Position numbers and translations under genes: made by a program. The notes under the pieces are model-generated. The model was not told where the DNA came from and did not search any database. It saw only the letters and a list, made by a program, of their open reading frames with translations. Positions 36,084 through 63,765 of a stretch of DNA of 64,000 nt are shown here, piece by piece. The stretch comes from Flavobacteriales bacterium. Lineage in GTDB: Bacteria > Bacteroidota > Bacteroidia > Flavobacteriales_D > Parvicellaceae. The stretch is from positions 44,350-108,349 of the forward strand of contig JAOASC010000031.1 of the NCBI GenBank assembly GCA_025210295.1, read 5' to 3'. Within the stretch, counting starts at the first letter, position 1; each line of letters opens with the position of its first letter.

Positions 36084-39000
36084 TCAACTGCTTGCTTTCC
36101 CAATCACATTTGCGATTACTCCAAGCCCCTTGGTAATTTCTTCCATTTGCAACAAAACTTGAGCGGTTTGATTATCTTCTCCTAGACCACTCATCTTTTG
36201 GGACTTTTGATATACCTCTTTTATTACTTGCCAACGTTGAGCTTCCTCTGGAGAAAGCATCCCTTGCAATTCTTTAAATTTTAGCATATTTGCCTCTGCT
36301 CCAGTTGTTAACGTCTGGGATTCATTTTCATAATGCGATAAAATAACGGTCTGCAATTCTTTATCGTTCATGATAGGAACTAGTTTTTCTACAATTTTAT
36401 TCATATCTCTATACGAACCTTGTAGTTTAAACGGAGGCTCTGTTCTGTATTTATCTTCCTGACCTGCCGAAGCAATGTATTGCGCATTGACTTTTGTAAG
36501 TGTATCTCTTACCTGAATTACTTTTTCTAATAAGGCTGTATACTCTTTTATTTCTTGTCCCGAATGATTCCCCTCAAACGCGATCCCTTCTTGCGATCCT
36601 GTTTCTACTACTTTCAAAAAGGCGTAAACATCTTTAAAACTTTTGGCTACCAATCGTTGTAACACAGGATTAGATGTTAAACTATTTTCTATATAACTTA
36701 AATTAAACACGGCTGCTTTTCCTCCTGTAATATCTCCCAAGTTGTATATATCAGCACGATTGGAAAGCATATCGGGAATTTGAAATTTATCGCCACTTTC
36801 TGTATAAGGATTTCCAGCCATAACAATGGCTACTTTTTTCCCTCTTAAGTCATAGGTTTTACTCTTTCCTTTGTAAACTCCCTCTATTTTACGCTGCGCA
36901 TCACATAAAGAAATAAACTTTTGTAAAAACTCTGGATTACAATGCTGAATATCATCTAAATAGATCATAACATTGTCTCCCATTTCGAATGCTAAATTGA
37001 GTTTTTCGATCTCTTCTTTTGCACTTGCGTTAGGCGCCTCAGCTGGATCTAAAGAAGTAACTTGATGTCCGATAGTTGGCCCATTAATTTTCATAAACAC
37101 TAAACCTAAACGATTGGCGATATACTCCATTAATGTTGTTTTCCCGTAACCAGGAGGAGAAATTAACAATAACATCCCCATAAGGTCTGTTCGTTTATTC
37201 TCTCCAGCCGCTCCCATTTGCTTCGCAAGGTTATCTCCTATTAATGGGAAATACACTTCATCTATCAGTTTATTACGGACAAACGACGTCATTACTTTGG
37301 CCTTAAATTCATGTAAACGAAGCTCGTCTTTAAATGCGTGAATGATCTCTTTTTTTAGGGTTTGGTATTGCTCAAACTTTGGAACACTTACCGTTTTAAA
37401 ATCATACATTTTTGCATAAAAGCGATTGTAGTCAAAATCATAATCTGCATCAACGACAGTATGATTTCCTTGAAAACCGGTTAATTTCTGCCCTGTTTTT
37501 ACTTTAATCACCTTTGGCTTATCTTGATCTGAAGATATTACTGAAATTGCAACCTCTTCTACATAAGCTTTTAAGTGCATATTCTTTGGAGTCGCTTCTA
37601 AATATGCATTTAACCAATTTTGCATTAACAAAATCTGACTGACTGCAGATGCATCAACAGAATTTAAAGATTGATTGAATATTTTCTTTGCATTTACTTT
37701 AGTTAAATAGAGGTTAAACTGATCGTACAGTTCTAGCGCTTCCTGACTCAGGATAAATTGATCTCCTCGACACACTTCTTCAAACAGATAATTTGCAGCA
37801 TCAGTTATATTTGCCGCTGTATAGAGGTTGGTTTCCATCACAAAAGACTCCATCAGTTGAACCAGAGTTGTTTTTAGCTGTTTAAATTCATTGGTTTCGG
37901 GGAAAACTTCTATGACAACTCCTGCTGCTTTTAATCGAGCATTTAGCGCTTCTTTTTGTGGTACATCAATATATTTTTCCCAGAAAAACTTTGCGCAAGC
38001 TCTTTCATAACTGCTATACACCAATAAATCAGCATGTTTAGCTATAGTTAACGCTGTTTTAAGAATCAAATGAGCATCTACATCATGAATTCCTTTGGCA
38101 TAGCCTTCCTCATATTTACTAGCCATTAGCTGCTGCACAATAGCCAATTGCTCTTTTTCTTCAAGCATTAAAAATTCAGTTTCAGAAACGGGCTCCTTGA
38201 TGGCTAGTTTCTGTAGAATTTGATAGGCTAAATACTCCGCTCTATATACCTGTTTATTTTCTGAAATATAAGCTTGATCCCAAACGGATTCTGTTGCTAA
38301 AAACTCTGGATTAGTTACAGGCTCAAAATAATTCGTTCCTGTTAAATGAAAACACATTTCCCCATTTTTTAAAACAATGGTTAAATCCAACGGTTGGGTA
38401 TTGACCGAAAATTGATGCTTCCCCATCTGAATAATATCTTTCCCATCAACAAACAGCTCAGTTTTATCTTTTAGCTGTCGGAGCGCATCTTCTTTTACGG
38501 TTTTAAACTGACTTTGTACATCATCGGCCTTAACAGCATCTTTTAATTCGATTAATTGCGCTATAATATCACGGATTTTTCCAACCATGATATCAGAAGC
38601 AAAATAGCCATTTATTTCGACTGGTGTTTTAAAATTGGCTACCCTATTTTTAATCCCTTTTAGTATTCTCTCCGCCGATTGTTGTAGTGTAGTAGCGCGT
38701 TTATTACGACTTTCAATTAAAGCAATTTTTCGCGATTCAAAGGCGTTGTATACTTCTTCACGTTTCTCTCCTACCAGGGTAATAAACTCATCAAACTCCG
38801 AAAACTTACCCTCTAGCTCTTCGAGTTGCACCATGAGTTTGGTTAAATACTCATCACATTTTTCAGGAGTTTCAGAAATATCCAAAAAGTTAACCACACT
38901 TTGACTAATTAACTTAATTTGACTATTGAACTCTGCCTTTCCTTCTCGTCCTAATAATACTTTACGTTTTTTCTTAAGTGCTGCATTGATTTGGTTAAAC

Positions 39001-40967
39001 TGTGCATAAATATCAGAAATAGCGTCGATAATCTTAGTTGTTTGCGTAGCATCCTCAATTTTTAAATTACTAACAATCTCTATCAACAATTCCAACTCAG
39101 CAGAAACCGCTAAAACTTTATTTTCTAATTCATTAGCATCTACAACTTTCTCTAATTGACCAATTGTTGTTTTTAAACCGTCTACCTTAACTAAATAGGG
39201 AGCAAGCGATTTCTCGTCTAACAAAAACTGAACACAACGCTGTGATATATCTTCTTGATGTTGGGCTATTTGCTGATCTAATTCCTCTACTAAATCAACT
39301 TCAACATAACGTAATTCTTTTAATTGTATAATACTTCCTCTAACGCCTCTTATCTCTCCCAAAACCTCAACAAAATGATCAATTAAATCGAAGTTTTTAA
39401 TTTTAATCGCACGCAATAAGTTTGCTACAATTTCTTGTGTTCTTTGTGTTTCTTCTAGTGTATGTTGTTTTACTTTTACAACTTTATCAAACTCATCAAT
39501 AGCTGAGGAAGCTGATTCTTTAATCGCTACTAAAGGCTCATGAATATCGGCTACTGTTATGCTATCAATCCAATGATAAGTATCCAAGACATCGTTGGCT
39601 CCCTTTACAATATCTAGGTATAAATTGGCGTAAGAATCTTCTTTGTAAATCAAACGAATCACCTCATTACATTCTGACATTGCTTTAACAATATCTTTAT
39701 TTCCTATCTTTTGTAATTCAGAATCGTTTTTTTCTGCTGGAACGAAACTATGATCTAAAAATGGTGTTTGCCAAATTTGAACCGCGTGATGCTTTTTTTG
39801 TTCATCATCATTCTTAAAGAAACACATTTCTCCATTGTCAAAAATAGAATAACCGTGGCAAATAATAGGGGTTTCTACTTTCTGTTCAATAATGTTGTAA
39901 CTTAACAAGATATATACTCCTGACACTTCATTGTAAAACACATAAAGAAAATCCTCACCATTGGGTGATGCAATTCTTTTTTCGAAAATCATATTTTCTA
40001 ATTGATTTTCGAACAGTTTATATTCCCCTGATTGCAGGTAGTAACCTTTAGAAAAAATCAGTCCATGGTCGTCTGGTAGTAACACTCCTGATTTTTCTAA
40101 TGCATCTATCCGTGTAACCGTTTTGATTTTATTGTTAAAAACCAAATAGCGGAACTCTTTTTCTTGATAGGGTTGTATTTTTAAAACAACTAGATTTCCA
40201 ACTACAGCGTAGTAAACTAAAGCATCGTCTAAGGTTTGGTCTTTATTCGCTACTGGCTCTGTATAAATGCCTTTTCCTGAAGCGGTATTGTCTTCAATTT
40301 TTATTGTTAAATCCCCTCCTACTGTTTCAACAAAAACAAGATCTTCGATAGAAATATGTGGATGTTCTCCGCTTACATGCTGGTCTCTTGTTGTTTTGAT
40401 CCATTGAAACTCATGTTGTTCAGGATATGCAAGTTCGTATTCAGAACGGTTATCAACATAAATTAATTGTTGGCCTTTAACATTCCATTTAAATGCCTTA
40501 ACATCGTTTACAGAATTTCCTACTTGAAAGACAAAATACAGGAAAGGACCTTGTTCTACAAACTTTAAAAACTCTGCATTTTTATAATACTTATAAAGAT
40601 TATGAAAATCTGTTTGAAACGCTTCGTCGTTAATTAAATCATACGCAATTGGAGTAAAGTTATGATCGGCATACGCATACAGACTAAAAACATCACTGAT
40701 CTTAATTTCAGTTCGAAGGCCTATATGTACATTGTACCCAAAAATAAAGGCGTCTCCAACTGGAACCATATCACGAGGTAAACAATTGTTTTCTGTAGTA
40801 ATTCGCTCAGTAGAGACTAATGCTGTTTCTATGGCTCCAAAAACATTTTTACGTTCAACATTTAACGCGTGTAATTGCTCTTGTAATTGCTTTCCATGTT
40901 TAGATAAACGATCCCTAATGATTTCGTAAGTACCGCCCTCCAATTGTATTTCTTCGTTACGCTCCAT
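36084..40967 (-). CDS. Giant (1627 aa) protein with an N-terminal beta-rich region, a long central coiled-coil or helical region and a C-terminal MoxR/AAA_5-like AAA+ ATPase domain
   Basis: Walker A 'LISPPGYGKTTL' (around nt 37117-37151), Walker B 'VMIYLDDIQH' and a sensor-1 region 'VAIVMAGNPYTESGDKFQIPDMLSNRADIY' resemble the MoxR/dynein-related AAA_5 clade. The central 400 aa or so are heptad-rich. Confidence 0.7.
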   Translation of the reverse strand: MERNEEIQLEGGTYEIIRDRLSKHGKQLQEQLHALNVERKNVFGAIETALVSTERITTENNCLPRDMVPVGDAFIFGYNVHIGLRTEIKISDVFSLYAYADHNFTPIAYDLINDEAFQTDFHNLYKYYKNAEFLKFVEQGPFLYFVFQVGNSVNDVKAFKWNVKGQQLIYVDNRSEYELAYPEQHEFQWIKTTRDQHVSGEHPHISIEDLVFVETVGGDLTIKIEDNTASGKGIYTEPVANKDQTLDDALVYYAVVGNLVVLKIQPYQEKEFRYLVFNNKIKTVTRIDALEKSGVLLPDDHGLIFSKGYYLQSGEYKLFENQLENMIFEKRIASPNGEDFLYVFYNEVSGVYILLSYNIIEQKVETPIICHGYSIFDNGEMCFFKNDDEQKKHHAVQIWQTPFLDHSFVPAEKNDSELQKIGNKDIVKAMSECNEVIRLIYKEDSYANLYLDIVKGANDVLDTYHWIDSITVADIHEPLVAIKESASSAIDEFDKVVKVKQHTLEETQRTQEIVANLLRAIKIKNFDLIDHFVEVLGEIRGVRGSIIQLKELRYVEVDLVEELDQQIAQHQEDISQRCVQFLLDEKSLAPYLVKVDGLKTTIGQLEKVVDANELENKVLAVSAELELLIEIVSNLKIEDATQTTKIIDAISDIYAQFNQINAALKKKRKVLLGREGKAEFNSQIKLISQSVVNFLDISETPEKCDEYLTKLMVQLEELEGKFSEFDEFITLVGEKREEVYNAFESRKIALIESRNKRATTLQQSAERILKGIKNRVANFKTPVEINGYFASDIMVGKIRDIIAQLIELKDAVKADDVQSQFKTVKEDALRQLKDKTELFVDGKDIIQMGKHQFSVNTQPLDLTIVLKNGEMCFHLTGTNYFEPVTNPEFLATESVWDQAYISENKQVYRAEYLAYQILQKLAIKEPVSETEFLMLEEKEQLAIVQQLMASKYEEGYAKGIHDVDAHLILKTALTIAKHADLLVYSSYERACAKFFWEKYIDVPQKEALNARLKAAGVVIEVFPETNEFKQLKTTLVQLMESFVMETNLYTAANITDAANYLFEEVCRGDQFILSQEALELYDQFNLYLTKVNAKKIFNQSLNSVDASAVSQILLMQNWLNAYLEATPKNMHLKAYVEEVAISVISSDQDKPKVIKVKTGQKLTGFQGNHTVVDADYDFDYNRFYAKMYDFKTVSVPKFEQYQTLKKEIIHAFKDELRLHEFKAKVMTSFVRNKLIDEVYFPLIGDNLAKQMGAAGENKRTDLMGMLLLISPPGYGKTTLMEYIANRLGLVFMKINGPTIGHQVTSLDPAEAPNASAKEEIEKLNLAFEMGDNVMIYLDDIQHCNPEFLQKFISLCDAQRKIEGVYKGKSKTYDLRGKKVAIVMAGNPYTESGDKFQIPDMLSNRADIYNLGDITGGKAAVFNLSYIENSLTSNPVLQRLVAKSFKDVYAFLKVVETGSQEGIAFEGNHSGQEIKEYTALLEKVIQVRDTLTKVNAQYIASAGQEDKYRTEPPFKLQGSYRDMNKIVEKLVPIMNDKELQTVILSHYENESQTLTTGAEANMLKFKELQGMLSPEEAQRWQVIKEVYQKSQKMSGLGEDNQTAQVLLQMEEITKGLGVIANVIGKASS

Positions 40968-41109
40968 GGCTTTATCTTGCTTGGTCTGCTCCTCTTTAGT
41001 CCAGTTAAGTATTCAGGAACAGTTCCTATTTTCTTTCTCCTGTTTATTAACACACGATGAACTCCATTAAAAACATAGAAAAAGGTATTGATTTTCTCTT
41101 GATGAATAA

Positions 41110-41131
41110 CCCAGCAGTATCAACTGCTGGG
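41110..41131 (-). terminator. Perfect 8-bp hairpin (CCCAGCAG-tatcaa-CTGCTGGG) between the flotillin stop and the giant ATPase gene. It may be an attenuator or a partial terminator
   Basis: It lies 24 nt downstream of the flotillin stop on the transcribed strand, in a 187-bp gap. The following U-tract is weak. Confidence 0.3.
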
Positions 41132-41154
41132 CTGAATAAATTATTTGATGATTT

Positions 41155-43299
41155 TTACATCAAATCCTTGGCATTGGTATCTCCTAAACCTGTTTTAGCA
41201 ACAAATTCAATTAACTGTGATAACAATCCTTTATCTTTTGACGATTGTGAGTCGTTCATTAACTTAAACAATAAAGAAGAAACGGTAAAGTTTTTAATAT
41301 CCTCTGATCCTAATCCAGATTGAGCAATTAATCCTTTTATCTTATCTACAACAGTACTCCCATCTTCTGTATTCATCAATTGATTTTTTACCTCATTAAT
41401 GACAGTACTTTTATCTGAGTATTGATCGATAGCTTTGGCATTTGAAATCGCTCCCATAATCTTATCAAAGAATACTGGCTCTCCACCAACGATATCGATA
41501 TTTGCTGATTTTAAAGCACTTGACAACACTTCTGCTTGAGCAGCTGCAATATCTTTTTGGATATTAATTTGTGCTAATTCTATTTCTTTTTCTTTAGCTA
41601 ATTTCAACTTAAACTCTTCATGCTCTTTACCTACACCATCAAGTTTTTTCATAGCTGCAGCTTTCTCCTCAATTCCTTTTGCTTCTGCTTCAAACTTTTT
41701 AGTCATTACATTCGCTTCTGTTAAGCCTTTTTCTTCCTGCGCTTTAGCTTTAGCTTTGATAACGTCAGCCTCTGCAACACCGATATTTGTATTCGCTTTG
41801 GCTTGAGCCATTGACTTCATCTCAATTCCTTTCGCTTCTGCTTCTGCTGTTGCTTCAATCACAGCTGCCTGCGCATTTCCTTGTTCTTCGGTTCCTTCTG
41901 CTTTAGCTTTCATCACTTTAGCTTCCGACAATCCAATTGCTGCTTTTTGAGTAGCTTCGGCATCTGCTAAAATTTTAATTGCTTCTGCTTCTTGATTAGC
42001 TGCTTGCATTTTAGCTTCTGCATCTATAATACGTTTCTTTGCTTCATATTCGGCTGCTTGTTGTGATGCTTCGGCTGCTTTTATTTGTTGAACTAATTGC
42101 TCTTGAGCTAATTTTTCAGCATTGGTAATTGCAACCGATTTTAAACGATCTGCTTCTGCAAATGCTTTGGTATCTTTTATTTTTTCTTCTTCATCAACAA
42201 CTGTCTTTTCAATTGCAACACGTTCTCTAATCGTTTCTTGAATGTTTTTACGTTCTACCTCTATTGCTTTTTCTTTTTCAATTTGAGCTAAGGTCACAAT
42301 ACGTTCTCTTTCGTTCATTTCAAGCGCTCTATCTTTTTCTACACGCTCGGCCTCCACAGCCATTGTTCGCTCTTTATTCTTTTCTGCTACAACAATTTGT
42401 CTGTTTTTATTCTCCTCTGCAACTTGAACTTCTTCGTCGGTAGCTATTCTAGCTTTTTCAGCTTTAAGACGCTCTTCTTGATTAACCTTTTCTATTTCAG
42501 CTGATTCTCTAGCTTTGATATTGGCAATTTCACGTGCTTGCTTCTCTTCTTTTTCAGCCAATTGACGTTCCATTTCCAAAATAGCTTCTCGTGTTTCTAC
42601 ATTTTGCTGTGTGATGATTTTTTCCTCATCTCTTTGGATTTGATTAGCTAAAATCTTTTGTTTAGCTGTTAACTCTGTAATTTTCTTAATCCCTTCAGAA
42701 TCTAAAATATTATTTGGACTTAGTGCATTGATATTTGTTTGCTCTAAATAATCAATTGCTGCATCATCTAATCGGTAACCGTTTAAATCTGTTCCAATAA
42801 TATCGATAATGGCTAATTTAAATTTTTCACGTTCGTTGTATAAATCAACAAAATCGATCTGCTTTCCTACGGTTTTTAAAGCTTCAGAAAACTTTGCTTC
42901 AAACAGTTCTATTATTGCTTGTTTTGATGCTGCTCTAGCACATCCAACTGATTGTGCAACCTTTATCACATCTTCTATTGATTTATTTACGCGAACAAAA
43001 AAAGCTACTTTAATATCAGCACGCATATTATCGGCACAAATTAAACCATCCGAACCACTACGTTCAATGACAATGTTCTTTAAGGAAATATCCATGATCT
43101 CTAATTTGTGTAAAACGGGGATCACTAAAATACCTCCAAACGAAACCTTGGTTCCGCCAACACCTGTTCGCACTAAAGCTTGCCCTTGTGCAGCTTTTTT
43201 ATAAAACCTAGAAATAATTGCAAAAGTCCCTAATAAGACTACTGCGATAACAATTGTAACAACTACAAAAACGTTTCCAAATAACTCTGATGTATCCAT
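41155..43299 (-). CDS. Flotillin-family protein (SPFH/band-7 domain plus long Ala/Glu-rich flotillin repeats), YqiK/FloT-like
   Basis: An N-terminal TM segment and an SPFH domain ('VRTGVGGTKVSFGGILVIPVLHKLEIMDISL') are followed by about 350 aa of EA-rich coiled coil ('AEAKGIE...'). Confidence 0.85.
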   Translation of the reverse strand: MDTSELFGNVFVVVTIVIAVVLLGTFAIISRFYKKAAQGQALVRTGVGGTKVSFGGILVIPVLHKLEIMDISLKNIVIERSGSDGLICADNMRADIKVAFFVRVNKSIEDVIKVAQSVGCARAASKQAIIELFEAKFSEALKTVGKQIDFVDLYNEREKFKLAIIDIIGTDLNGYRLDDAAIDYLEQTNINALSPNNILDSEGIKKITELTAKQKILANQIQRDEEKIITQQNVETREAILEMERQLAEKEEKQAREIANIKARESAEIEKVNQEERLKAEKARIATDEEVQVAEENKNRQIVVAEKNKERTMAVEAERVEKDRALEMNERERIVTLAQIEKEKAIEVERKNIQETIRERVAIEKTVVDEEEKIKDTKAFAEADRLKSVAITNAEKLAQEQLVQQIKAAEASQQAAEYEAKKRIIDAEAKMQAANQEAEAIKILADAEATQKAAIGLSEAKVMKAKAEGTEEQGNAQAAVIEATAEAEAKGIEMKSMAQAKANTNIGVAEADVIKAKAKAQEEKGLTEANVMTKKFEAEAKGIEEKAAAMKKLDGVGKEHEEFKLKLAKEKEIELAQINIQKDIAAAQAEVLSSALKSANIDIVGGEPVFFDKIMGAISNAKAIDQYSDKSTVINEVKNQLMNTEDGSTVVDKIKGLIAQSGLGSEDIKNFTVSSLLFKLMNDSQSSKDKGLLSQLIEFVAKTGLGDTNAKDLM

Positions 43300-43322
43300 G
43301 TTTTTTATCTATTTATTTTTTA

Positions 43323-43976
43323 TTAATGATTATACTTTTCTACGAGGAAATAATCCTCTTCTTTAATGTGGTCTAAGACCAAAACTTTATCTCCTTTTTT
43401 TACAGACGCTGCACTTTCGTGTGTTTTAATAAAAATGGTAAAGAATGACTCTCCAACCATTACATCTGCTTGTCCTTTTTGAGTTGAACTAGCCCCTAAT
43501 CGAACCTCTCCAATAGCGCCAATAAGATCATCTTCATCACTTTCTTTTTCTAATACTGCAAATAGTTTTACAAAAGGTGTTGTAAAGATTTTTGCAACAA
43601 ATAAACTCACAATAAAGATGGGAACTAACAAGGCTAAACTGAGGAGGAATGAAGTATTTCCTAAAATGTGATTAGACATTACCGACAACACCCACATTGG
43701 TATAGCCAAAAAAGTTAAAAACACCATAAAAGGAATTTTACCCAAATTAAAAAAGGCTAATATTTTATTTAAGGCAAATAAATTTGAGGCTGAATTCCCT
43801 TCTACTTCAATATCTGCATCCACATCTATGTCAGCGTCTATCTCTACATCAAAGTCTAAAAAATCGGTATCAACTGCTCCGATCAAGACAATCAACCAAT
43901 AGAACAGTACCAACACAAAAAGGGTTGTCGGGATAAAATTTACTCCCGAAAAAACAATATTTATTAATTCGTTCAT
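43323..43976 (-). CDS. YqiJ/NfeD-like membrane protein (DUF1449-type) paired with flotillin
   Basis: The protein has an N-terminal TM segment, an Asp-rich acidic loop ('DTDFLDFDVEIDADIDVDADIEVEG'), further TM helices and a C-terminal soluble beta domain. It lies directly upstream of the flotillin gene, as in yqiJ-yqiK. Confidence 0.6.
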   Translation of the reverse strand: MNELINIVFSGVNFIPTTLFVLVLFYWLIVLIGAVDTDFLDFDVEIDADIDVDADIEVEGNSASNLFALNKILAFFNLGKIPFMVFLTFLAIPMWVLSVMSNHILGNTSFLLSLALLVPIFIVSLFVAKIFTTPFVKLFAVLEKESDEDDLIGAIGEVRLGASSTQKGQADVMVGESFFTIFIKTHESAASVKKGDKVLVLDHIKEEDYFLVEKYNH

Positions 43977-43984
43977 TGTTCTTT

Positions 43985-44380
43985 TTATTGATGTGAGAAA
44001 TTAATCAAATCAGAAGCGTGCTCTGACAATAACAGACTCAAAGAATTTATACTTCCTTCAAGTTCGTTAAGATCTAAATTCTCCAATTGCAAGGTATCTC
44101 TAAAAATAACTTTGGTTCCTGTTTCATCTAATGTAAACGCTCCATGAATAATTGTTCTATTTTTTTCTAATAAAAACTTCAATGCCTCGATATTTGAAGC
44201 ATCTATTTCAAATAAAAATTGTTCTAAAATCAATATGGGGTTGGCACATCCAATCACTAAATTTTGCAATCCAAACTCTGGTTGATTGATTACAAAAACT
44301 TCGTCATCTGCATTTTCAAAGGTAATGTTATGCTCCAACTCTATTAAGTAGTTTTTTATCTTTTCGAAATGTGTCTTCAT
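43985..44380 (-). CDS. YbjN-domain protein (131 aa), paralog A
   Basis: Size and motifs ('PILILEQFLFE', 'RDTLQLENLDLNELEGSINSLSLL') fit YbjN. It is clearly paralogous to 50097..50492. Confidence 0.6.
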   Translation of the reverse strand: MKTHFEKIKNYLIELEHNITFENADDEVFVINQPEFGLQNLVIGCANPILILEQFLFEIDASNIEALKFLLEKNRTIIHGAFTLDETGTKVIFRDTLQLENLDLNELEGSINSLSLLLSEHASDLINFSHQ

Positions 44381-44521
44381 TGGTTTATTTTTATCTTTTT
44401 TCTTGTTTATAAATGTAATCTTTTTTTGTTTTGTTTTAGCTTTTTTTCATCATTTCTACTCTGCGGTTTGATTTTATTAATTTTTGTGCTTTTTCTCATT
44501 TTTTTCATCCCCCGACATCAA

Positions 44522-46117
44522 TCAATAAATTTTCCAATTTCCTTTTTTGTAGTAGGTATACAACACTGGGTTAAACAAGGTATTGACTGCTGTATTTGTA
44601 GTATCCACCATCGGCTTCCCAAACAATGTTATTGCTTTTGAAGCATCATTATTCAACCATTCTAAATCAAGTTTATCATAATCAAAATTAATCATCTTTT
44701 GTTTTAGCGCTGTTGAAGAATACTGTTTACTTCCCATAATCCAACCCCACTCTCCCATGGTTAAAATTTGACTATGCAATGGCAATGTATTAAACCCACC
44801 TGCTCGCATGCTTTTTTCAACACAATAAAATGCTTTACTAGCATAATAAGGGCTCCCCGCCTGAGTTATTATCGCTCCACTTTTTGTTAATCGTTGACTA
44901 CATAAGAAGTAAAATTCTCTGGTATATAATTTATTCAAATCTACATTGTTAGGATCTGGTAAATCAATAATAATAACATCATACAATATTTTATTATGTT
45001 CTAAAAACTGAAAAGCATCTTCGTGTTTAATCGTTACTTTTTGATGGTTTAAAGCTCCCTTATTCATCTCAAGAAACAACTCATTTTCCTTAGCCAGCTC
45101 TGTCATTTTCGGGTCTAAATCAACTAACGTTATCTCTTCTATGTCTTTATAGTTTAACAATTCTCGCACTGCACATCCATCTCCTCCTCCTAATACTAAT
45201 ACTCTTTTTTTGTTTTCTACAACATTAACTACTGGATGCACCAAAGGCTCATGATACATATATTCATCAAAAGAGGATAATTGTAAATTTCCATTAATAA
45301 ACAACGAGTAATTATCCTGCCATTGAGTCATGACTATTTTTTGATATTGTGTTTCTGTTTGGAACACTATTTTATCTCGATATTTTTTTTGATCTCCATA
45401 CAACACTATTGGTTTAGCAAAATACAATCCTACAAAAATTACAACTCCAACAACCATAAACCAAACCGTTAATATTTTTCTATATTTTTCACTGATTACT
45501 TTTCTTAGGTATAAAAAAGTAAACAATGCTACTGTAAAATTTAACAGTCCTAAGACAAAAGGAGTATATGTTAATCCTAAAAAAGGCATACCTACAAAAG
45601 CAAAAAACAATCCACCGACTAAGCTCCCATAATAATCTTTTTCTAAAACTGAAGCTACATTTACTTTTAGCTCTTCAAACTCCTCATTTAATCTTGTTAC
45701 TAAAGGAATTTCTAAGCCTATTAATAACCCCACAACAATAGACAAGGCGTAAATAAATACTGGAGAATATCTCCCATAGGTAATGTATACAGCTAACGCA
45801 CAAAAAGAAACTAAAAAGGAAAGAATCAGTTCTAAGTAAATAAACTTAACCAACAACTCTTTTTCTATCAACTTGCTTAACCGACTTCCAAATCCCATTG
45901 CAAAAAGCATGGTGGACACAATTAAAGCAAATTGAACTACAGCATTCCCAATAAAATAAGAAGCTAACGTTGATAAGACATATTCTGCTACAATACCACT
46001 TATTCCTGTAGCAAACAATGCTATTTTAAGAACTGCCGACTTTCGTTTATTTGTTTGATCTACTACGCTCAATTTATTTTCTTTTTTTAAAGCGTCCAAT
46101 CCAATAATATAGAGCAT
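44522..46117 (-). CDS. speE: Polyamine aminopropyltransferase (spermidine synthase family) fused to an N-terminal polytopic membrane domain
   Basis: About 220 aa of TM helices are followed by the spermidine synthase core ('VLVLGGGDGCAVRELL', 'ITLVDLDPKM', 'DVIIIDLPDP'). Confidence 0.85.
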   Translation of the reverse strand: MLYIIGLDALKKENKLSVVDQTNKRKSAVLKIALFATGISGIVAEYVLSTLASYFIGNAVVQFALIVSTMLFAMGFGSRLSKLIEKELLVKFIYLELILSFLVSFCALAVYITYGRYSPVFIYALSIVVGLLIGLEIPLVTRLNEEFEELKVNVASVLEKDYYGSLVGGLFFAFVGMPFLGLTYTPFVLGLLNFTVALFTFLYLRKVISEKYRKILTVWFMVVGVVIFVGLYFAKPIVLYGDQKKYRDKIVFQTETQYQKIVMTQWQDNYSLFINGNLQLSSFDEYMYHEPLVHPVVNVVENKKRVLVLGGGDGCAVRELLNYKDIEEITLVDLDPKMTELAKENELFLEMNKGALNHQKVTIKHEDAFQFLEHNKILYDVIIIDLPDPNNVDLNKLYTREFYFLCSQRLTKSGAIITQAGSPYYASKAFYCVEKSMRAGGFNTLPLHSQILTMGEWGWIMGSKQYSSTALKQKMINFDYDKLDLEWLNNDASKAITLFGKPMVDTTNTAVNTLFNPVLYTYYKKGNWKIY

Positions 46118-46965
46118 CCTACATAAGCAAACGCTTCTACTAATCCTGCTCCAACATTAGGCTTCTCCTGATTCACCAATTCATCTGTTAGTTTTTGCCC
46201 TGGCAACAGCAACTTATCTGCCACCACCCTTACAACTGGTAAAATGGCTAATGCAATAACAGAGTTATACAAAATAGAATAAGCCGAAACCTCCCAAGAA
46301 ATAAAATCTCCTTGAATCCCATGTCTTATCAAATTTGCGATCGATATAATTACCCCAGAATAGGCTATTCCAACAGCAAAGTTATTTTTCTTAATCTCAT
46401 CTAATAGGCTAAAATTTAATATTGCATTATATACAAAAGTTGAAAGTACAAACATTAGCATTCCTACTCCCCAAAAAATTATTGTACTTAAAAACCCATT
46501 GATCACATCATGGTGACTATCTCCCGATACTGCACCATATATAATTAATCCAGTAGCAACAGAAATTGCAGCCTCTAAAACTCCTACCCCAACATTCTGA
46601 TCTTCAACTAATTCATGCTTTAGATTCATCCTTCTAAGAATCAAGAAGTCATTCAATACAATACTCAAGTTAAGTAATATAATACTAATCAAAGCATACA
46701 AAGAAAAATCAGTTAGATCGTCTACCAAATTACCTGTTGTTCCTCCAGTAAGTGCACCTCCCAACGCGATCACAATACCCGACAAGTACCCAACATTGGC
46801 AAAAGCAAAAGCAAAATTATCTTGTTCTACCAATTCATGGTTCATATCAATTTCTTTATGCAATAATTGATAAACTTTCCTGCTAACAACTAAAAAAAAT
46901 AAACTTAAAATTGTATAAGCAAATGTTGCAAAATAACTATCGGGATTTGTAAAAAATTCGTTCAT
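46087..46965 (-). CDS. Membrane protein with two DUF350-like repeats
   Basis: Two hydrophobic modules of about 130 aa each contain 'NVGYLSGIVIALGGALTG' / 'AVGIAYSGVIISIANLI' and 'HELVEQDN' / 'HELVEDQN'. The gene overlaps the speE start by 31 nt. Confidence 0.6.
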   Translation of the reverse strand: MNEFFTNPDSYFATFAYTILSLFFLVVSRKVYQLLHKEIDMNHELVEQDNFAFAFANVGYLSGIVIALGGALTGGTTGNLVDDLTDFSLYALISIILLNLSIVLNDFLILRRMNLKHELVEDQNVGVGVLEAAISVATGLIIYGAVSGDSHHDVINGFLSTIIFWGVGMLMFVLSTFVYNAILNFSLLDEIKKNNFAVGIAYSGVIISIANLIRHGIQGDFISWEVSAYSILYNSVIALAILPVVRVVADKLLLPGQKLTDELVNQEKPNVGAGLVEAFAYVGCSILLDWTL

Positions 46966-46967
46966 AA

Positions 46968-47480
46968 TTAATTTCCTGGTAATAATTTATCTATTGCAAA
47001 TGGGTTGATCTTTTTTCCTAAATGCGCTTCAAACTCAAATTTACTCCATCGTTCAATACATATAAACTCGTCTTTTTCATTCCAATACATCCAAGAAGTT
47101 AATTCTGACCAGCCTTCTGCCCCTTCTTTTTGATACTCTCCAAAAGCTTCCTCATCTAATTTATACACCTCGCTGTTATAGATTAAGTTTTCAGGAACGG
47201 AGGCATAAGTTAAAACTTCATCTTTAAAACGAGGTGCCACCTTAAGGATTTCAGCTGGCACTGTCATATACAATACACCATCATCAGCCACCTCTAAAAA
47301 AAGCACCGAACTACCATCGCTGAGTTTATACTCTCTAGATTTAAAATTGTTTTCCCATAGGTAGTGGTAAACCTCTTGTACTACCCAGTTTTTCATATCA
47401 TACTCCAAAGTAGCCCCAATAGTTAAATTATGAAGTGTTGCCTCAACCGGCTCCTCTTTTTTCTTAAAAAATCCAAACAT
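46968..47480 (-). CDS. DUF4178-like soluble protein
   Basis: The N-terminal 'L.IGATLEYDMKNWVVQEVYHY.WENNFKSREYKL' is paralogous to the N-terminus of the next gene. Confidence 0.5.
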   Translation of the reverse strand: MFGFFKKKEEPVEATLHNLTIGATLEYDMKNWVVQEVYHYLWENNFKSREYKLSDGSSVLFLEVADDGVLYMTVPAEILKVAPRFKDEVLTYASVPENLIYNSEVYKLDEEAFGEYQKEGAEGWSELTSWMYWNEKDEFICIERWSKFEFEAHLGKKINPFAIDKLLPGN

Positions 47481-47523
47481 TTTAATTTTATTTTTTGTTC
47501 AAACAAGCTCTTTTCAATGACTT

Positions 47524-48276
47524 TTACTTTCCAAAGCCACCACCTCCACCGCGGAATCCACCGCCGCCACCTCCAGACCAGCCACCTCCACCAACATGAT
47601 GGTATCTACCAGAGTTTCCTGTATGAATATATGTTCCATTACAACCTCTAGACATGATGACGATGAAAACAACCAAAATAATCATAAAAAGGATAATCTT
47701 AACAGGTGTTGGATTATCATCCCCTCCTCCTTTGTAGGTCGAATTGTAACCGTGTTTACGTTGTAATTTTCTTTCTCTAGCTCTATTCGGATCTCCCGGT
47801 GTAACGTTGCTTATTTCTAACTCTTGTACCTTATGACCATGACAAGCTTCTATATCTCCATCCCAATTTTCTACTGAAATAAATTCTTCTCCTTGACTAT
47901 CGTAATAATCCCATAAATAAAATGACTCCCAATAATTATCTTCATCATTTCTCGCTTCGGAATTAAATTTTTCATTAAAGGAATATGTTTTGCCTTGATA
48001 TCCAATTGTTGGTATAGGATCTGCATAAGGTATAAAATCAGATGATTTCAGCGGTATATCAATCTCTTTACTAAAAAGTATTTTTAATACACCATCATCC
48101 TCTACCTCTAAATACCCTTCTTCATCTCCAGCATATATTTTATATTCTTTGCTGGTAAAATTATTCCCCCATTTGTAATGATATACCTCTTCTACAATCC
48201 ATGTTTTTAGATTGTAATCAAACGTATAGCCTACTTTAAGCTCTGTTAATTTTGGTTCGAAAGATGAATCACTCAT
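47524..48276 (-). CDS. DUF4178-like domain protein with a TM anchor and a C-terminal poly-Gly tail
   Basis: The segment 'LKVGYTFDYNLKTWIVEEVYHYKWGNNFTSKEYKI' is paralogous to the preceding gene. It is followed by a TM helix ('IILFMIILVVFIVIM') and the tail 'GGGGWSGGGGGGFRGGGGGFGK'. Confidence 0.5.
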   Translation of the reverse strand: MSDSSFEPKLTELKVGYTFDYNLKTWIVEEVYHYKWGNNFTSKEYKIYAGDEEGYLEVEDDGVLKILFSKEIDIPLKSSDFIPYADPIPTIGYQGKTYSFNEKFNSEARNDEDNYWESFYLWDYYDSQGEEFISVENWDGDIEACHGHKVQELEISNVTPGDPNRARERKLQRKHGYNSTYKGGGDDNPTPVKIILFMIILVVFIVIMSRGCNGTYIHTGNSGRYHHVGGGGWSGGGGGGFRGGGGGFGK

Positions 48277-48277
48277 A

Positions 48278-48652
48278 TTATTTGTTAAAACTTGGGGTTA
48301 ATTGATTAATTGTTCCTCTTTTTACTTCTTTTAACTCCATTATCTCTGCTTCAAATATCGTTTTAATATACGCTAATGCCTCTGTTAATTCATAAGATTC
48401 ATTACATGTAAAAAAATCTAATGCTACATACTTGTATTCTGGCCAAGTATGAATGGCTATATGACTTTCTTTAATCACAATAACCCCACTTACCCCAATT
48501 GGGTTAAAATGATGTATTGTTGTATTCACAACAGATAAACTGGCGATTTTCGCAGCTTCTAATAACGTTTTTTCTACAAGAGCTGTGTCATTGATTTTTT
48601 TAGCATCACAACCATGTAATTCAATTAATGTATGAAAACCAAGCGTCTGCAT
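48278..48652 (-). CDS. speD: S-adenosylmethionine decarboxylase proenzyme (pyruvoyl-dependent, SpeH/SpeD class 1)
   Basis: The processing and active-site motif 'VIKESHIAIHTWPE' is present, with self-cleavage at the E-S bond. The 124-aa size fits the family. Confidence 0.8.
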   Translation of the reverse strand: MQTLGFHTLIELHGCDAKKINDTALVEKTLLEAAKIASLSVVNTTIHHFNPIGVSGVIVIKESHIAIHTWPEYKYVALDFFTCNESYELTEALAYIKTIFEAEIMELKEVKRGTINQLTPSFNK

Positions 48653-49186
48653 TTATCTTCTCTTTGAAATTCGTTGGGGAGAATATTTCACTAAAGGTTT
48701 CCCAGTATATTTTGCCACCACTTTACCTAATTCTAAAGCTTCTTCGTAGTCATCAAACTGACTTATTAATAACCTTCCTAAATGTTTTGGAGTTAGAAAA
48801 ACAAGATCGTGTTTATAGATATAATCTCCTCCTGTTTCGTAATAACTTTCGGTGTTATCATCATAACTGTCATCATAACTATACCTTTTAGAAATGATAC
48901 TTATATCCCTGTATTTCACCAAATCATTCTCCTTAGTATATGTTACACCAAAGACATTTAATTGATTTTTAAACGTTTTCTCTTTATAGTTAATTATTAT
49001 CATTTCTTTTGCAAACAGCATTATTGAACCTGCTACAAATAAAAAAGTTCCAAAGAGAAGAGAGACCCAATTACCTCCACCAAAAAAACTTAAAACTACT
49101 GCAAAACCACCAGTAACTAAAAAAGCTGCACCTGTTACCCTATGAGAAATACCAAAACTATATCCTTTATCTATTTTTTTTATCAT
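48653..49186 (-). CDS. Hypothetical membrane protein (2 N-terminal TM helices plus a cytoplasmic domain) between pspA and speD
   Basis: The hydrophobic N-terminus is 'GAAFLVTGGFAVVLSFFGGGNWVSLLFGTFLFVAGSIMLFA'. There is no known motif. The track start at 49189 is TTG. The ATG is at 49186. Confidence 0.4.
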   Translation of the reverse strand: MIKKIDKGYSFGISHRVTGAAFLVTGGFAVVLSFFGGGNWVSLLFGTFLFVAGSIMLFAKEMIIINYKEKTFKNQLNVFGVTYTKENDLVKYRDISIISKRYSYDDSYDDNTESYYETGGDYIYKHDLVFLTPKHLGRLLISQFDDYEEALELGKVVAKYTGKPLVKYSPQRISKRR

Positions 49187-49369
49187 CAACCTTTAAGTAA
49201 CTCCAAATGCTTTTAACAATTCGGCTCATCATTTTAAAAAACGGAAAAATAATTTTATCGAAAAAAAATCCGGAAAAAGATGAACAACAATATCTAAAAA
49301 CAGCTCCAGCAACATTTTATAAAAAGTCTAACAAACCATAGCGTTTGTTAGACTTCTAGTTATTAGAAA

Positions 49370-50068
49370 TTACATTCCCATTTTTTTCTTCAACTCTGCT
49401 AATGCATCAGCAGAATCTGCATCAACATTATCTAGAGCGGCATCAATTTCTTCATCTACGCTTTTAGATTGCTCAGCAATATCTCCATAAGCTTCTGCTA
49501 ACGCTTCTTCTTCGGCAACTTTGTCTTTCATTTTTTCTAACATTGCTATTGTTCCTGTAGAATCTACTTGAGACAATTGCTTGTTGATCTTCTTCGTTGC
49601 TTTACTTACTTTCATACGAGCTTTTAATGTTTTCAACTCATTCTCGTATTTACTAATATTTGATTTTACTTTGTTGATATTCGCTTCTAATTGCGCTATT
49701 GATTGATCAAACTTTTGAACTTCTGCTTGCGCTCTAGCTCCATTTTCTTTTGCTTGTTGCACTCTTTTTAACGCTTCAGTAGCCAAACGATCTGCTTCAG
49801 CAGCATCCATTTTCCCTTCTTTTGCATTATTTAAAAGCGTCATCGCTTTTTTCTCAAAATCCTCAACTTGAAATTTAGATTTATTCAAATCAGCATTTGA
49901 ACGAATTCTTAACGCTTTAACTTCAGCTAAAGCTTTTAGAGAAGCATCTAAATCTTTCTTTAGATCTCTAATTCCTTGTTCTGTTAATTTTATTGGGTCC
50001 TCTAACTTATCTACCAAGTTATGTGCCTCTGATTGTCCTATTTTAAAAAGTCTTCTAAATATACTCAT
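49370..50068 (-). CDS. pspA: PspA/IM30 (phage shock protein A / Vipp1 / YjfJ) family protein
   Basis: The N-terminus 'MSIFRRLFKIGQSEAHNLVDKLEDPIKLTEQGIRDLKKDL' is typical of PspA/IM30. The rest is coiled-coil over 232 aa. Confidence 0.85.
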   Translation of the reverse strand: MSIFRRLFKIGQSEAHNLVDKLEDPIKLTEQGIRDLKKDLDASLKALAEVKALRIRSNADLNKSKFQVEDFEKKAMTLLNNAKEGKMDAAEADRLATEALKRVQQAKENGARAQAEVQKFDQSIAQLEANINKVKSNISKYENELKTLKARMKVSKATKKINKQLSQVDSTGTIAMLEKMKDKVAEEEALAEAYGDIAEQSKSVDEEIDAALDNVDADSADALAELKKKMGM

Positions 50069-50096
50069 GATTGTCTTTTTTTACGTATTCAAATTA

Positions 50097-50492
50097 TTAC
50101 TTCGAGAACTCTATCAATTCTCTATTATATTCTGTCATCAATAAACTCAATGAGTTGATTGATCCCTCTATTTCATTTCGATCTAAATTTTCGATTTGTA
50201 AGGTATCTCTAAACGAAACTTTGTTCTCGTGCAAAACAAAAGCCCCGTGTACAATATCTCTATTCTTTGTCAACAAACTTTTGTATAACTCAGGTGTTTC
50301 ATTCTTTACCTCAAAAAGAAATTGCTCCATAATTAATATTGGATCTTCACAGTCTAATACTAAATTAAAAATACCTTCTTCCTCTCTTTCTATTACAAAT
50401 AGTCCATTTTCTTCGTCTTCCACTTTTATTACATAGTTTAAATCAACTAAATAAGCTTTAATTTTTTGGAAGTGATTTTGTTGTGTTTCCAT
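50097..50492 (-). CDS. YbjN-domain protein (131 aa), paralog B, first gene of the pspA operon
   Basis: It is the same length as 43985..44380, with shared blocks ('PILIMEQFLFE', 'RDTLQIENLDRNEIEGSINSLSLL'). Confidence 0.6.
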   Translation of the reverse strand: METQQNHFQKIKAYLVDLNYVIKVEDEENGLFVIEREEEGIFNLVLDCEDPILIMEQFLFEVKNETPELYKSLLTKNRDIVHGAFVLHENKVSFRDTLQIENLDRNEIEGSINSLSLLMTEYNRELIEFSK

Positions 50493-50606
50493 AAGTCGTA
50501 ATTAAATTTTTTATAAATCTACAAACAACTAATTAATTTAGCAAGAAAAAACTAATATTTTTTGCATTTATTTTGTTTGACCACATTTTTTACTAACTTT
50601 GTTGGC

Positions 50607-51344
50607 ATGTCGACAATAGGAATTAACATCAAAAAAATAAGAAGTGTCAAAGGACTTAATCAAACTGCTTTTGCCAACCTTTTTGGATTAACACGTGCCA
50701 ACATTGGTTCTTATGAAGAATTAAGGGCTGAACCAAAAATTGATACAATCATCAAGATAGCCACACATTATAAAATACCTATTGATAAATTAGTTAGAAA
50801 AGAGTTAACGGTTAACGAAATTTCAAATTTTGATATCTTTTCTAAAGTTCCATCATATCATACAGAAAAACAACCCAAAGGAATCAAACTGGTCAACCAA
50901 AATGATTTAAAAGACTATCCTAAACTAAAAAAAGACACTAAATACCTAAGTAACCTTCAATCGATAAACCTACCTATTCAACATATAAAAGCTAAAAATA
51001 TTATCATTTTTAATGAGGGGAACACTTTATTCTCAGGAAAAGACAGTTTCTATCACGGTGATTTTCTTTATCTTGAGGCTATAGAAAACAAAACCTCAAG
51101 CTTTTTGGGAGTTATCGTTGATGCTGAACAATTTCACAAAGGGCTCATTACTATTCACAAAAATAAAATCTCTATACAACCTTTAAACAACAATAACGAT
51201 AAAAGGGAAATTTTATATACCGATCAACTTGAGATTTGGGAAATAAAAGGAAAGTTTACTACAGAAATTTCGCACGAAAATACACTTGTTACACAATTGA
51301 AAAATATCGAAGAGCGATTAAGAAAAATCGAACAAGAAAAATAA
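50607..51344 (+). CDS. XRE-family helix-turn-helix transcriptional regulator, divergent from the pspA operon
   Basis: The N-terminal HTH is 'IKKIRSVKGLNQTAFANLFGLTRANIGSYE'. The C-terminal roughly 170 aa are an unknown domain. The track start at 50562 is an upstream TTG. The ATG is at 50607. Confidence 0.65.
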   Translation: MSTIGINIKKIRSVKGLNQTAFANLFGLTRANIGSYEELRAEPKIDTIIKIATHYKIPIDKLVRKELTVNEISNFDIFSKVPSYHTEKQPKGIKLVNQNDLKDYPKLKKDTKYLSNLQSINLPIQHIKAKNIIIFNEGNTLFSGKDSFYHGDFLYLEAIENKTSSFLGVIVDAEQFHKGLITIHKNKISIQPLNNNNDKREILYTDQLEIWEIKGKFTTEISHENTLVTQLKNIEERLRKIEQEK

Positions 51345-51471: not shown

Positions 51472-52275
51472 ATGGGATTTTATATTGGCGGTATAATACT
51501 GTTAGTTGTAGCAGTAATATTTTTCATCATCCAAAAGAAAAGAAGCGGCAAACTTCATCATATAGAGTACAATGATACAACAAGCATTAATCAAATTGTA
51601 GAAAATCACAACGAAATGTCTGGCTCTTTTGGCCCTGGATCATTTAGTCTTTATAGTGAGGTAAAAGGGATTGCTACAGCAAACACCCCTATAAAAACTG
51701 AGTTCTCACATCAAGAATGTGTATATTACAAATCTACTGTGACCCGAGAATATGAAGTATTAGAAAAAACAAAAGATGCCAGTGGCAAATCCTCAAAAAG
51801 ATGGGTAAGAAAGTCTGAAGTTGTTGCTAACAATGAAAATAAGTCTCATGATTTTATGATTAGAGATAATTCTGGGGAAATACTACTCAATACTGAAGGC
51901 TCGGAATTACATGCAAAAAAGACGTTTTCAAAATTTGAAGAGGGAGACGACGCTCCTAAGGGAGGATTAAACATTTCAATTGGTAGTTTTTCAATTTCCT
52001 CTGGTTCTAATTATAGAACAATTGGTTATAAATATGAAGAGTACGCTATACCAACAAAAACCCCACTTTATGTAATAGGTGATGCCAACGATCGATCAGG
52101 TCGATTGCAAATATCAAAACCGACAGATAAGAGACCTTTTATCGTTTCCACCAAATCTGAAGATGAAATAACAAAACAGCTAAGCTCATCAGCCAAATGG
52201 ATGTTTTACGGAGCTATAGGATGCGCTGTTGCGGCAGGCACATTAATTGTTATTGGAGTGATTAAAAGCTTTTAA
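51472..52275 (+). CDS. Membrane protein with N- and C-terminal TM anchors, possibly a GIDE-domain family member
   Basis: An N-terminal TM segment plus a 'KKR' stop-transfer is followed by a beta-rich middle with 'ECVYYKS' and a C-terminal TM segment 'MFYGAIGCAVAAGTLIVIGVI'. Confidence 0.35.
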   Translation: MGFYIGGIILLVVAVIFFIIQKKRSGKLHHIEYNDTTSINQIVENHNEMSGSFGPGSFSLYSEVKGIATANTPIKTEFSHQECVYYKSTVTREYEVLEKTKDASGKSSKRWVRKSEVVANNENKSHDFMIRDNSGEILLNTEGSELHAKKTFSKFEEGDDAPKGGLNISIGSFSISSGSNYRTIGYKYEEYAIPTKTPLYVIGDANDRSGRLQISKPTDKRPFIVSTKSEDEITKQLSSSAKWMFYGAIGCAVAAGTLIVIGVIKSF

Positions 52276-63564: not shown

Positions 63565-63765
63565 AATCTTTGTTTTTAAATCATTGAATGCTACGTTACA
63601 AAATGACAATTTTTTGACTCAATAATCAGTAACATTTGTTTCTTAAGCTTTTTTGTAAGACAAAAAAATGCATGTTCGGTTTGAACCAATGTAGGAAAGG
63701 AGTGTATAAGTCATCAGATTTTAAAAAATTCTTATTAACTTTACATTTATCAAATACACGAAAAG

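Follow-up and report, generated by a model that had tools for sequence, protein, structure and literature searches.

How do two small CesT-like proteins come to stand in a gene cluster that holds only one PspA? The question is raised by a stretch of contig JAOASC010000031.1 from a marine Flavobacteriales bacterium, here called the window (64,000 nucleotides in all, and the frame of every coordinate given below). In it the two genes, named here CesA (43985..44380, minus strand) and CesB (50097..50492, minus strand), belong to a string of 12 genes, all in one direction, at 36084..50492 (minus strand). In the reading that we prefer, with a probability of roughly 0.6, this string is one phage shock protein (PSP)-type cluster joining two published CesT/PspA operon classes, in which CesB and PspA make up the dyad, CesA would act as a second adaptor and the PspA would be shared. 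Both operon classes, like the family assignment, are in the literature already, and this is not a new kind of system. The one unusual point is that the copy on the flotillin side has no PspA, which an earlier note on this DNA, made from its sequence, had missed.

Both open reading frames (ORFs) were found on the minus strand, each coding for 131 aa; a plus-strand reading of their coordinates was ruled out by 12 stop codons in the translation. The earlier note had described two ORFs of the same length sharing long blocks, and had named a low pairwise identity as the result that would speak against it. The BLASTP alignment of CesA with CesB bore the description out, with 72 of 128 positions identical (56%), 73% positives, one gap of 2 residues and an E value of 5e-47. 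The blocks common to both are PILI[LM]EQFLFE and RDTLQ[LI]ENLD[LR]NE[LI]EGSINSLSLL. In an alignment of 15 diverse members of the family, the invariant core was F93-L117 plus E53, Q54 and F57; the blocks identical in CesA and CesB are thus family-wide invariants, which are evidence that the two copies belong to the family and not that they are especially close to each other. At the DNA level identity was 61.5%, and the same codon was used at 37 of 74 identical residues.

The assignment to the YbjN-like proteins with the fold of type III secretion system (T3SS) chaperones, also made in the earlier note, was confirmed by profiles and by structure. Against Pfam PF22550 CesT_Tir_1 (curated cut-off 27 bits), a family of at least 2955 clusters at 90% identity, CesA scored 174 bits (E 1.7e-51, residues 1-130 of 131) and CesB 169.6 bits (E 3.9e-50, residues 5-131). 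PF10722 YbjN (cut-off 22 bits) was just passed, marginally by CesA (23.5 bits, E 7.1e-5) and with 32.1 bits by CesB (E 1.6e-7). At NCBI both copies (MCT4581734.1 and MCT4581742.1, from a Flavobacteriales metagenome-assembled genome) are named "YbjN domain-containing protein". A fold model was made with AlphaFold for CesA, to which CesB is 56% identical; it had a pLDDT of 90.3, a pTM of 0.80 and the elements H-E-E-E-E-H-E-E-H-H. The Foldseek search of this model against the Protein Data Bank (PDB) gave 28 matches at E<=1e-3, every one of them a chaperone or YbjN-like protein. The best were SicP, PA14_16140 (BacA), YbjN, VecA, SycN-YscB, AmyR, CesT and ExsC, with TM-scores of about 0.6-0.73, E values of 2e-5 to 1e-3 and identities of 10-20%; SicP, PA14_16140/BacA, YbjN and SycN-YscB each reached about 0.7. 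Taking into account both the Pfam and the AlphaFold/Foldseek matches, the label YbjN-like with a T3SS-chaperone fold is therefore correct. No T3SS component was found among the neighbours at 36-58 kb of the window, which are PspA, polyamine, flotillin-like, AAA+, helix-turn-helix (HTH), GIDE and Usp genes, and the CesT copies fall outside the functional family of T3SS class I chaperones. By tblastn, neither a further CesT copy nor a second PspA was present in the 64-kb window.

The frame for these genes is given by Ravi et al. (2024, mSystems, PMC11237479). There a new CesT/Tir-superfamily protein is described as the upstream partner of yjfJ-type PspA, and the CesT/Tir-PspA dyad is placed in three settings: alone; with band-7/flotillin, a YqiJ/YuaF-like 3TM protein and a novel AAA+ ATPase; and before seven-transmembrane (7TM)-SpeE, DUF350, DUF4178 and a lipoprotein, with links to S-adenosylmethionine decarboxylase (AdoMetDC). 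The examples given there are ANH61662.1/ANH61663.1 for the flotillin class and AAN56746.1 for the polyamine class, and the AdoMetDC linkage is credited to Li et al. 2019. In the window, CesB lies directly upstream of PspA and in the same direction, 28 bp away, as in the published dyad. CesA does not: the YqiJ-like gene follows it after 8 bp, and neither a PspA nor a remnant of one was found there. The families of the polyamine type are present downstream of the CesB-PspA dyad (PF01564 with NF002956, PF03994, and PF13785 twice). The features of the cluster and of its upstream flank, in the direction of its transcription, are as follows.

52277-53089, minus strand: tandem-Usp gene, upstream of CesB beyond GIDE
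51472-52275, plus strand: GIDE gene, upstream of CesB beyond HTH_3
50607..51344, plus strand: divergent XRE-type HTH_3 regulator (PF01381, E 2.8e-7)
50510..50521, minus strand: promoter-like -7 box TAGATTTATAAA; about 17 nt separate its end from the CesB ATG, and a TTG precedes it by about 20 nt
50097..50492, minus strand: CesB, CesT_Tir_1/YbjN-like protein (PF22550, PF10722)
49370..50068, minus strand: PspA/IM30 protein, the sole one in the window, its acidic C-terminal tail ending in ALAELKKKMGM (PF04012, E 4e-43)
49324..49355, minus strand: terminator-like hairpin directly 3' of the pspA stop, followed by UUUUUAU (-21.5 kcal/mol, z -4.4)
48653..49189, minus strand: predicted membrane protein of 178 aa, without a significant match in Pfam or NCBIfam
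48278..48652, minus strand: AdoMetDC, small prokaryotic type (PF02675, E 7.6e-38)
47524..48276, minus strand: DUF4178 protein with a C-terminal transmembrane segment and a Gly-rich tail (GGGGWSGGGGGGFRGGGGGFGK) (PF13785, E 7.6e-20)
46968..47480, minus strand: second DUF4178 protein (PF13785, E 4.1e-19)
46087..46965, minus strand: DUF350 (YjfL-like) polytopic membrane protein (PF03994, E 7.7e-53, two repeats)
44522..46117, minus strand: membrane-anchored polyamine aminopropyltransferase, N-terminal transmembrane region plus SpeE (NF002956; PF01564, E 6.8e-37)
44406..44417, minus strand: promoter-like -7 box TACATTTATAAA; 25 nt separate its end from the CesA ATG, inside the A-rich 141-bp spacer
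43985..44380, minus strand: CesA, CesT_Tir_1/YbjN-like protein without a PspA of its own (PF22550, PF10722)
43323..43976, minus strand: YqiJ/YuaF (NfeD-like) type membrane protein (weak PF21001 YqiJ_N match, position and operon description)
41155..43299, minus strand: flotillin-like protein, 714 aa (names of homologues)
41110..41132, minus strand: terminator-like hairpin 3' of the flotillin-like gene, followed by UUAUUCAU (-19.3 kcal/mol, z -4.4)
36084..40967, minus strand: AAA+ ATPase, 1627 aa, with N-terminal DUF3686 and DUF7902 (PF12458, E 4.6e-191; PF25472, E 2.3e-25; PF00004, E 1.5e-8)

In the direction of transcription the 12 genes run CesB, PspA, 178-aa protein, AdoMetDC, DUF4178, DUF4178, DUF350, SpeE, CesA, YqiJ-like, flotillin-like and AAA+. 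After the 28 bp between CesB and PspA there are 180 bp, with the first hairpin, before the 178-aa gene, which abuts AdoMetDC (0 bp); then 1 bp to the first DUF4178 gene, 43 bp between the two DUF4178 genes, 2 bp to DUF350 and an overlap of 31 bp between DUF350 and SpeE. The 141 bp from SpeE to CesA are followed by 8 bp to the YqiJ-like gene, 23 bp to the flotillin-like gene and 187 bp, with the second hairpin, to the AAA+ gene.

The arrangement was compared with at least 80 Bacteroidota loci, collected by a contig scan and classed by tblastn with the window proteins: 42 were flotillin-type, 23 polyamine-type and 17 dyad-only (3 of these too near a contig end for certainty). In all three classes PspA lies directly 3' of CesT, and a few solo CesT genes also occur among the loci listed. 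A PspA stands between CesT and YqiJ in 42/42 of the flotillin-type loci listed from other Bacteroidota, and among the loci listed outside the window lineage no CesT directly before YqiJ was found. The large AAA+ (DUF3686/DUF7902/AAA) holds the same position in most of the flotillin-type loci listed. In a neighbour-joining (NJ) tree, the PspA of the window groups with PspA proteins of mostly polyamine-type operons. The interpretation in the earlier note is partly supported. It had proposed that the two modules arose by duplication or recruitment around a common adaptor. Duplication of modules does not hold, as they have no homologous genes in common except CesT and the two copies are never sisters in the tree (0/200, see below). 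As for the common adaptor, the unit that recurs elsewhere is the CesT/Tir-PspA dyad of Ravi et al. (PMC11237479) and not CesT alone.

Loci of the window's own lineage (L081/82, L084, L087, L089, L091/92 and L093, in the labels used for compared loci) were found by exact-protein look-ups, and none was among the contig-scan matches listed. L089 (CesA 96% identical) has HTH_3 divergent from CesB-PspA and then the whole string as far as SpeE-CesA-YqiJ-flotillin-AAA+. L081/82 (89%) are arranged alike with no AAA+ after the flotillin-like gene, and in L081 a TPR/SpoIIE gene lies between SpeE and CesA, with CesA still next to YqiJ and flotillin. L093 (70%) reads SpeE-CesA-YqiJ-flotillin on a contig that begins inside PspA and ends just past the flotillin-like gene. 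L084 (78%) and L087 (74%) end in SpeE-CesA with no YqiJ or flotillin, a convergent luciferase-like gene being next, and L091/92 (69%) also end so, with an FtsW/RodA gene next. Wherever a lineage locus has both CesA and YqiJ, they are separated by 0-8 bp or overlap by 1 base, and both CesT copies are kept in 7/7 of the related contigs that extend over both positions. A CesA orthologue that has no PspA and abuts YqiJ makes the arrangement a variant, confined to this lineage, of a system already known. The next relatives of CesA, L085/86 and L094/95 (68-69%), are solo genes. In L085 (10001-11848) and L094 (5672-7525) an ATP-binding cassette (ABC)-type ATPase gene follows 7-10 bp on, then a TsaB/TsaD-like gene, with no PSP-type gene nearby. 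Genes of the CesA clade were seen in three kinds of place: last in polyamine operons, first in YqiJ/flotillin strings, and beside ABC-ATPase/TsaB-like genes. Elsewhere (L049, L064) a solo CesT gene is followed by one for a BrkB/YihY-type membrane protein.

The separation of the two copies is old. In the NJ tree of the 131-aa CesT protein (200 bootstraps), the CesB clade was recovered in 199/200 replicates, CesA with its solo relatives in 183/200, and CesA with CesB as sisters in 0/200. On average either clade was 56-59% identical to any other CesT from Bacteroidota, about the same as CesA is to CesB. The ratio of nonsynonymous to synonymous substitution rates (dN/dS) against orthologues was 0.011-0.118 for CesA and 0.011-0.048 for CesB, some pairs being too saturated to compute; synonymous sites were near saturation even at 96-98% protein identity. 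Conservation of at least 85% was seen among dyad CesTs at 48 columns, and CesA and CesB retain nearly all of them. Both copies thus keep the conserved surface of the family (FRDTLQxENLDxNExEGSxNSL), and both are under strong purifying selection. Among these 48 columns the CesA clade differs consistently at I38L and Y121H and varies at K73, and the CesB clade has a 2-residue loop deletion relative to the family. Considering the lack of sister grouping, the saturation, the low dN/dS and the intact core together, both a pseudogene and a recent duplicate are ruled out for either copy, and the core molecular function of the family is probably retained in the two.

The equal ORF lengths and the long identical peptide blocks could have suggested a recent or decaying pseudo-duplicate, or a recent gene conversion, and the earlier note had named a recent pseudo-duplicate without expression as fatal to its observation. 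This explanation is refuted, and we hold it extremely improbable: half of the identical residues have different codons at 61.5% nucleotide identity, intact orthologues of both copies stand in diverged relatives with dN/dS <=0.12, both cores are intact, sister bootstraps are 0/200, and the identical blocks are family-wide. As for other lineages, in Croceimicrobium (L001, L008 and L016 versus L011) CesT and PspA of both operon types cluster by genus and not by type, which hints at repeated duplication or homogenisation of the dyad within that lineage. Two CesT genes at one locus were also found, independently, in the Flavobacteriaceae loci L036/L037 (about 3700-11700), where one strand carries the polyamine operon, dyad and HTH_3, and the other a second, divergent CesT with an OmpA-domain gene after it.

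Both CesT genes are preceded, a few tens of nt before the ATG, by the box TA[CG]ATTTATAAA (relaxed form TAsATTTAT), which may be a variant of the Bacteroidetes -7 element TAnnTTTG. The CesB box is conserved in four related loci. The core of the CesA box, TTACATTTA (TATATTTA in L087), is kept in the window and in six related loci (L089, L081/82, L084, L087 and L093), and survives in SpeE-CesA spacers as short as about 45 nt. For the pattern TASATTTATMAA, 3 sites were counted in the window versus 0.23 expected, two of those sites having served to derive the pattern. The third, a TACATTTAT box at 63742-63769 (plus strand), lies 17 nt before the ATG of a gene leaving the window end (MEPKKSSKANMEGFL...), a position that fits a general promoter element in this organism. 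The strict Bacteroidetes pattern TTTG-N17-22-TAnnTTTG gave 4 sites versus 5.3 expected, none before either CesT on the right strand, and a sigma-70 consensus scan was uninformative (41 sites versus 63 expected), the organism being Bacteroidota-like. The stem of the pspA hairpin is kept in L089 by a compensatory A-U to G-C change, and L082 has a different hairpin in the same place. The 141-bp SpeE-CesA spacer is unstructured, with no terminator-like fold (z +0.8), and no Rfam match was found in the window. The hairpins suggest a highly expressed CesB-PspA unit, attenuated read-through beyond it, and a separate AAA+ transcript. It was stated in the earlier note that each copy leads its own module; each is indeed first in its gene string and has its own box, but CesA is not bound to the flotillin module, as L084, L087 and L091 keep it with no flotillin genes.

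How might such a cluster work? In the preferred reading, CesB and PspA form the canonical dyad behind the divergent HTH_3 gene, followed by the hairpin and by the polyamine-type genes, and CesA is an old, separately evolving paralogue standing where a flotillin-type dyad would stand, minus its PspA. Each CesT would be a small dimeric protein of T3SS-chaperone fold that binds PspA or a regulator of PspA, and that either holds PspA soluble or controls its delivery and the expression of the cluster. If the CesT proteins do bind or control PspA, as we infer, the single PspA from the CesB-PspA dyad could on that account serve the polyamine set as well as the flotillin/AAA+ set, and CesA would be an additional adaptor, not redundant with CesB; the flotillin-side PspA would have been lost as redundant or would never have come along. 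The two would then likely be PspA-binding chaperones or regulators sharing one PspA, and PspA is a plausible candidate for the common partner suggested in the earlier note. The sole experimental analogue found for a CesT-PspA partnership is BacA-BacB of Pseudomonas aeruginosa (PMC10948618).

Several observations weigh against this reading. The orthologues of CesA in L084, L087 and L091, together with the solo relatives, weaken a flotillin-specific role: the former keep CesA without flotillin genes, so CesA is not tied to that module, and the latter have no PspA nearby, so an adjacent PspA is not needed for the family to work. The rate of evolution of CesA is about double that of CesB (in L091, 69% versus 87% identity to the window copies), which could mean relaxed or changed function. 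The CesT and PspA NJ trees do not cleanly split flotillin-type from polyamine-type dyads, so that CesA may be either the remnant of a flotillin-type dyad or a recruited copy. Reading the boxes as promoters depends on a motif recognised after the fact. Finally, the 714-aa protein gave no Pfam, NCBIfam, PDB phmmer or PDB profile match, and its comparison with a Band_7 protein by hhalign was not significant (probability 1.3%).

Three other explanations, which are not mutually exclusive, were considered. CesA could be simply the last gene of a polyamine-type operon with a CesT at each end, YqiJ, flotillin and AAA+ being a secondary and dispensable neighbour. This is a tentative possibility, the likeliest of the three, and it is in accord with L084, L087 and L091/92, where SpeE and CesA stay together across a short spacer and flotillin genes are missing, and with the SpeE-CesA spacer lacking the kind of terminator-like structure that is strong after pspA and after the flotillin-like gene. 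However, the insertion in L081 parts SpeE from CesA and leaves CesA with YqiJ and flotillin, CesA and YqiJ are nearly contiguous wherever both are present, a conserved promoter-like box stands immediately before CesA, and the CesA clade has solo members at a long distance from all polyamine genes. A little less probable, we consider, is that the CesT-like proteins are a regulatory partner switch and not assembly chaperones, acting in the manner of ExsC or of the role proposed for BacA, tying the status of PspA to HTH_3 and in this way controlling expression of the cluster. The top fold matches include ExsC-ExsE, YbjN, AmyR and PA14_16140 (BacA), a bacA mutant accumulates the Bac operon proteins (PMC10948618), and an HTH_3 homologue is upstream of the dyad in most flotillin-type loci listed; but many of the polyamine-type and dyad-only loci listed have no detectable HTH_3 neighbour, and a switch of this kind is compatible with the chaperone model.

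Rather unlikely, in our estimation, is that CesA and CesB form a heterodimeric chaperone on the single PspA, in the way of SycN-YscB for YopN. A heterodimer would explain why both copies are kept with or without flotillin genes, and SycN-YscB (1xkp) is among the top structural matches, both copies occur together in 7/7 of the contigs that show both positions, and there is one PspA per two CesT genes. Against this, most of the Bacteroidota loci listed have a single CesT by PspA, so that a homodimer is enough for the family, and the solo CesA-clade members have no CesB-type gene nearby. It is equally speculative, and doubtful to the same degree, that the PspA-less CesA clade is a functionally distinct subfamily, freed from the need for a neighbouring PspA, which, with CesB, as a second adaptor or as heterodimer, routes one PspA polymer to two effector sets. 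If true, this would be adaptor-directed targeting of a bacterial ESCRT-III homologue, both to polyamine membrane modification and to flotillin/AAA+ remodelling.

Among the remaining genes, those of the flotillin side deserve a closer description. The YqiJ-like protein matched PF21001 YqiJ_N under the cut-off (E 0.0057), is homologous (24-54%) to the gene at the same position in flotillin-type loci and fits the operon description in PMC11237479. The 714-aa protein has an N-terminal transmembrane helix, a conserved region of about 170 aa and a long coiled coil, and its homologues carry the NCBI/JGI names "flotillin family protein" or "YqiK". Its AlphaFold model was poor (pLDDT 57), with an unreliable N-terminal region and helices at 202-600. 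The flotillin label comes from those names and from Ravi et al., and could not be confirmed by the profile and fold tests made here. In Croceimicrobium L001, L008 and L016, and in L076, a DUF4178 gene was observed directly 3' of AAA+.

On the polyamine side, SpeE scored 557 bits against NF002956 (cut-off 472). The tandem DUF4178 pair, 34.6% identical by tblastn, is a second internal duplication in the cluster, and the pair is kept in all relatives. The 178-aa membrane protein is only 49-50% identical in close relatives whose adjoining genes reach 78-98%; in L087, L091 and L093 it is absent, accompanied or replaced, with an Ion_trans channel in L087 and L093. This place in the operon evolves fast and is variable. 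Between DUF350 and SpeE, a polytopic membrane protein of about 557-572 aa that belongs to no Pfam family is encoded in all close relatives, namely L081/82, L084 (which has two), L087, L089 (6619-8292), L091 and L093. The window has no such gene, DUF350 and SpeE overlapping there at 46087-46117. That this gene of about 560 aa was a SpeE paralogue fused by recombination was rejected: it has no SpeE similarity, and the SpeE of the window is a plain orthologue (85%). In L020 and L074 the polyamine genes are divergent from a single dyad.

Upstream of CesB, the mechanical ORF of the HTH_3 gene begins at TTG 50562, the likely start being ATG 50607, and its product carries a C-terminal domain of about 170 aa without a family. 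The position of the gene is conserved in L082, L087, L089 and L091; HTH_3 followed by GIDE and tandem-Usp upstream of the dyad is conserved in the window lineage. More widely, among the Bacteroidota loci listed, an HTH_3 homologue precedes the dyad in 33/41 of the flotillin type, 10/21 of the polyamine type and 4/13 of those with the dyad only. In the passages of Ravi et al. (PMC11237479) consulted, no mention of HTH_3 as a partner of the dyad was found.

The solubility, regulation and membrane targeting of PspA/IM30, a bacterial ESCRT-III-like protein, are poorly understood outside Proteobacteria and Firmicutes, and CesT/Tir-like partners of PspA have so far been proposed from gene neighbourhoods only. 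This lineage offers a natural experiment, with one PspA, two diverged and conserved CesT-like proteins and two effector sets. Relatives that lost the flotillin set and kept both CesT genes make the adaptor or chaperone idea testable, and the cluster is a compact system in which to test how PspA and CesT/Tir-like proteins act together.

Comparison with the known systems places the locus as follows. With the flotillin-type operons of Ravi et al. it shares the CesT-like, YqiJ-like, flotillin-like and large AAA+ genes in this order; it differs in that the window lineage has no PspA between CesT and YqiJ (8-bp spacer), and in that the string sits downstream of a polyamine-type operon that supplies the sole PspA. 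With the polyamine-type operons of the same authors it shares CesB-PspA followed by two DUF4178, DUF350 and membrane-SpeE, with AdoMetDC present; the window adds the 178-aa membrane protein and the second CesT after SpeE, and it is without the membrane protein of about 560 aa that its close relatives have between DUF350 and SpeE. The YbjN family (YbjN of E. coli, 6vu7, and AmyR of Erwinia, 5fr7) and the class I T3SS chaperones (SicP, CesT, SycE, SycN-YscB, ExsC) have the same fold, but at 10-20% identity, and CesA and CesB stand among PSP-type genes, with no T3SS among the neighbours examined. BacA/BacB of P. aeruginosa (PA3732/PA3731) and YjfI/YjfJ of Escherichia coli likewise have a small gene of T3SS-chaperone fold directly upstream of a PspA homologue, and BacA (PDB 8q8o) is the second-best structural match to CesA (TM-score 0.69-0.71). 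BacA and YjfI belong, however, to the DUF2170 branch (PF09938, not PF22550), with 12-13% identity in the structural alignment, and the BacA/BacB system is proteobacterial, has a sigma-54 promoter, and no paired second copy has been reported for it. In P. aeruginosa, loss of bacA raises the levels of the Bac operon proteins, and binding of BacA to BacB is mentioned in the same article as an unpublished result (PMC10948618).

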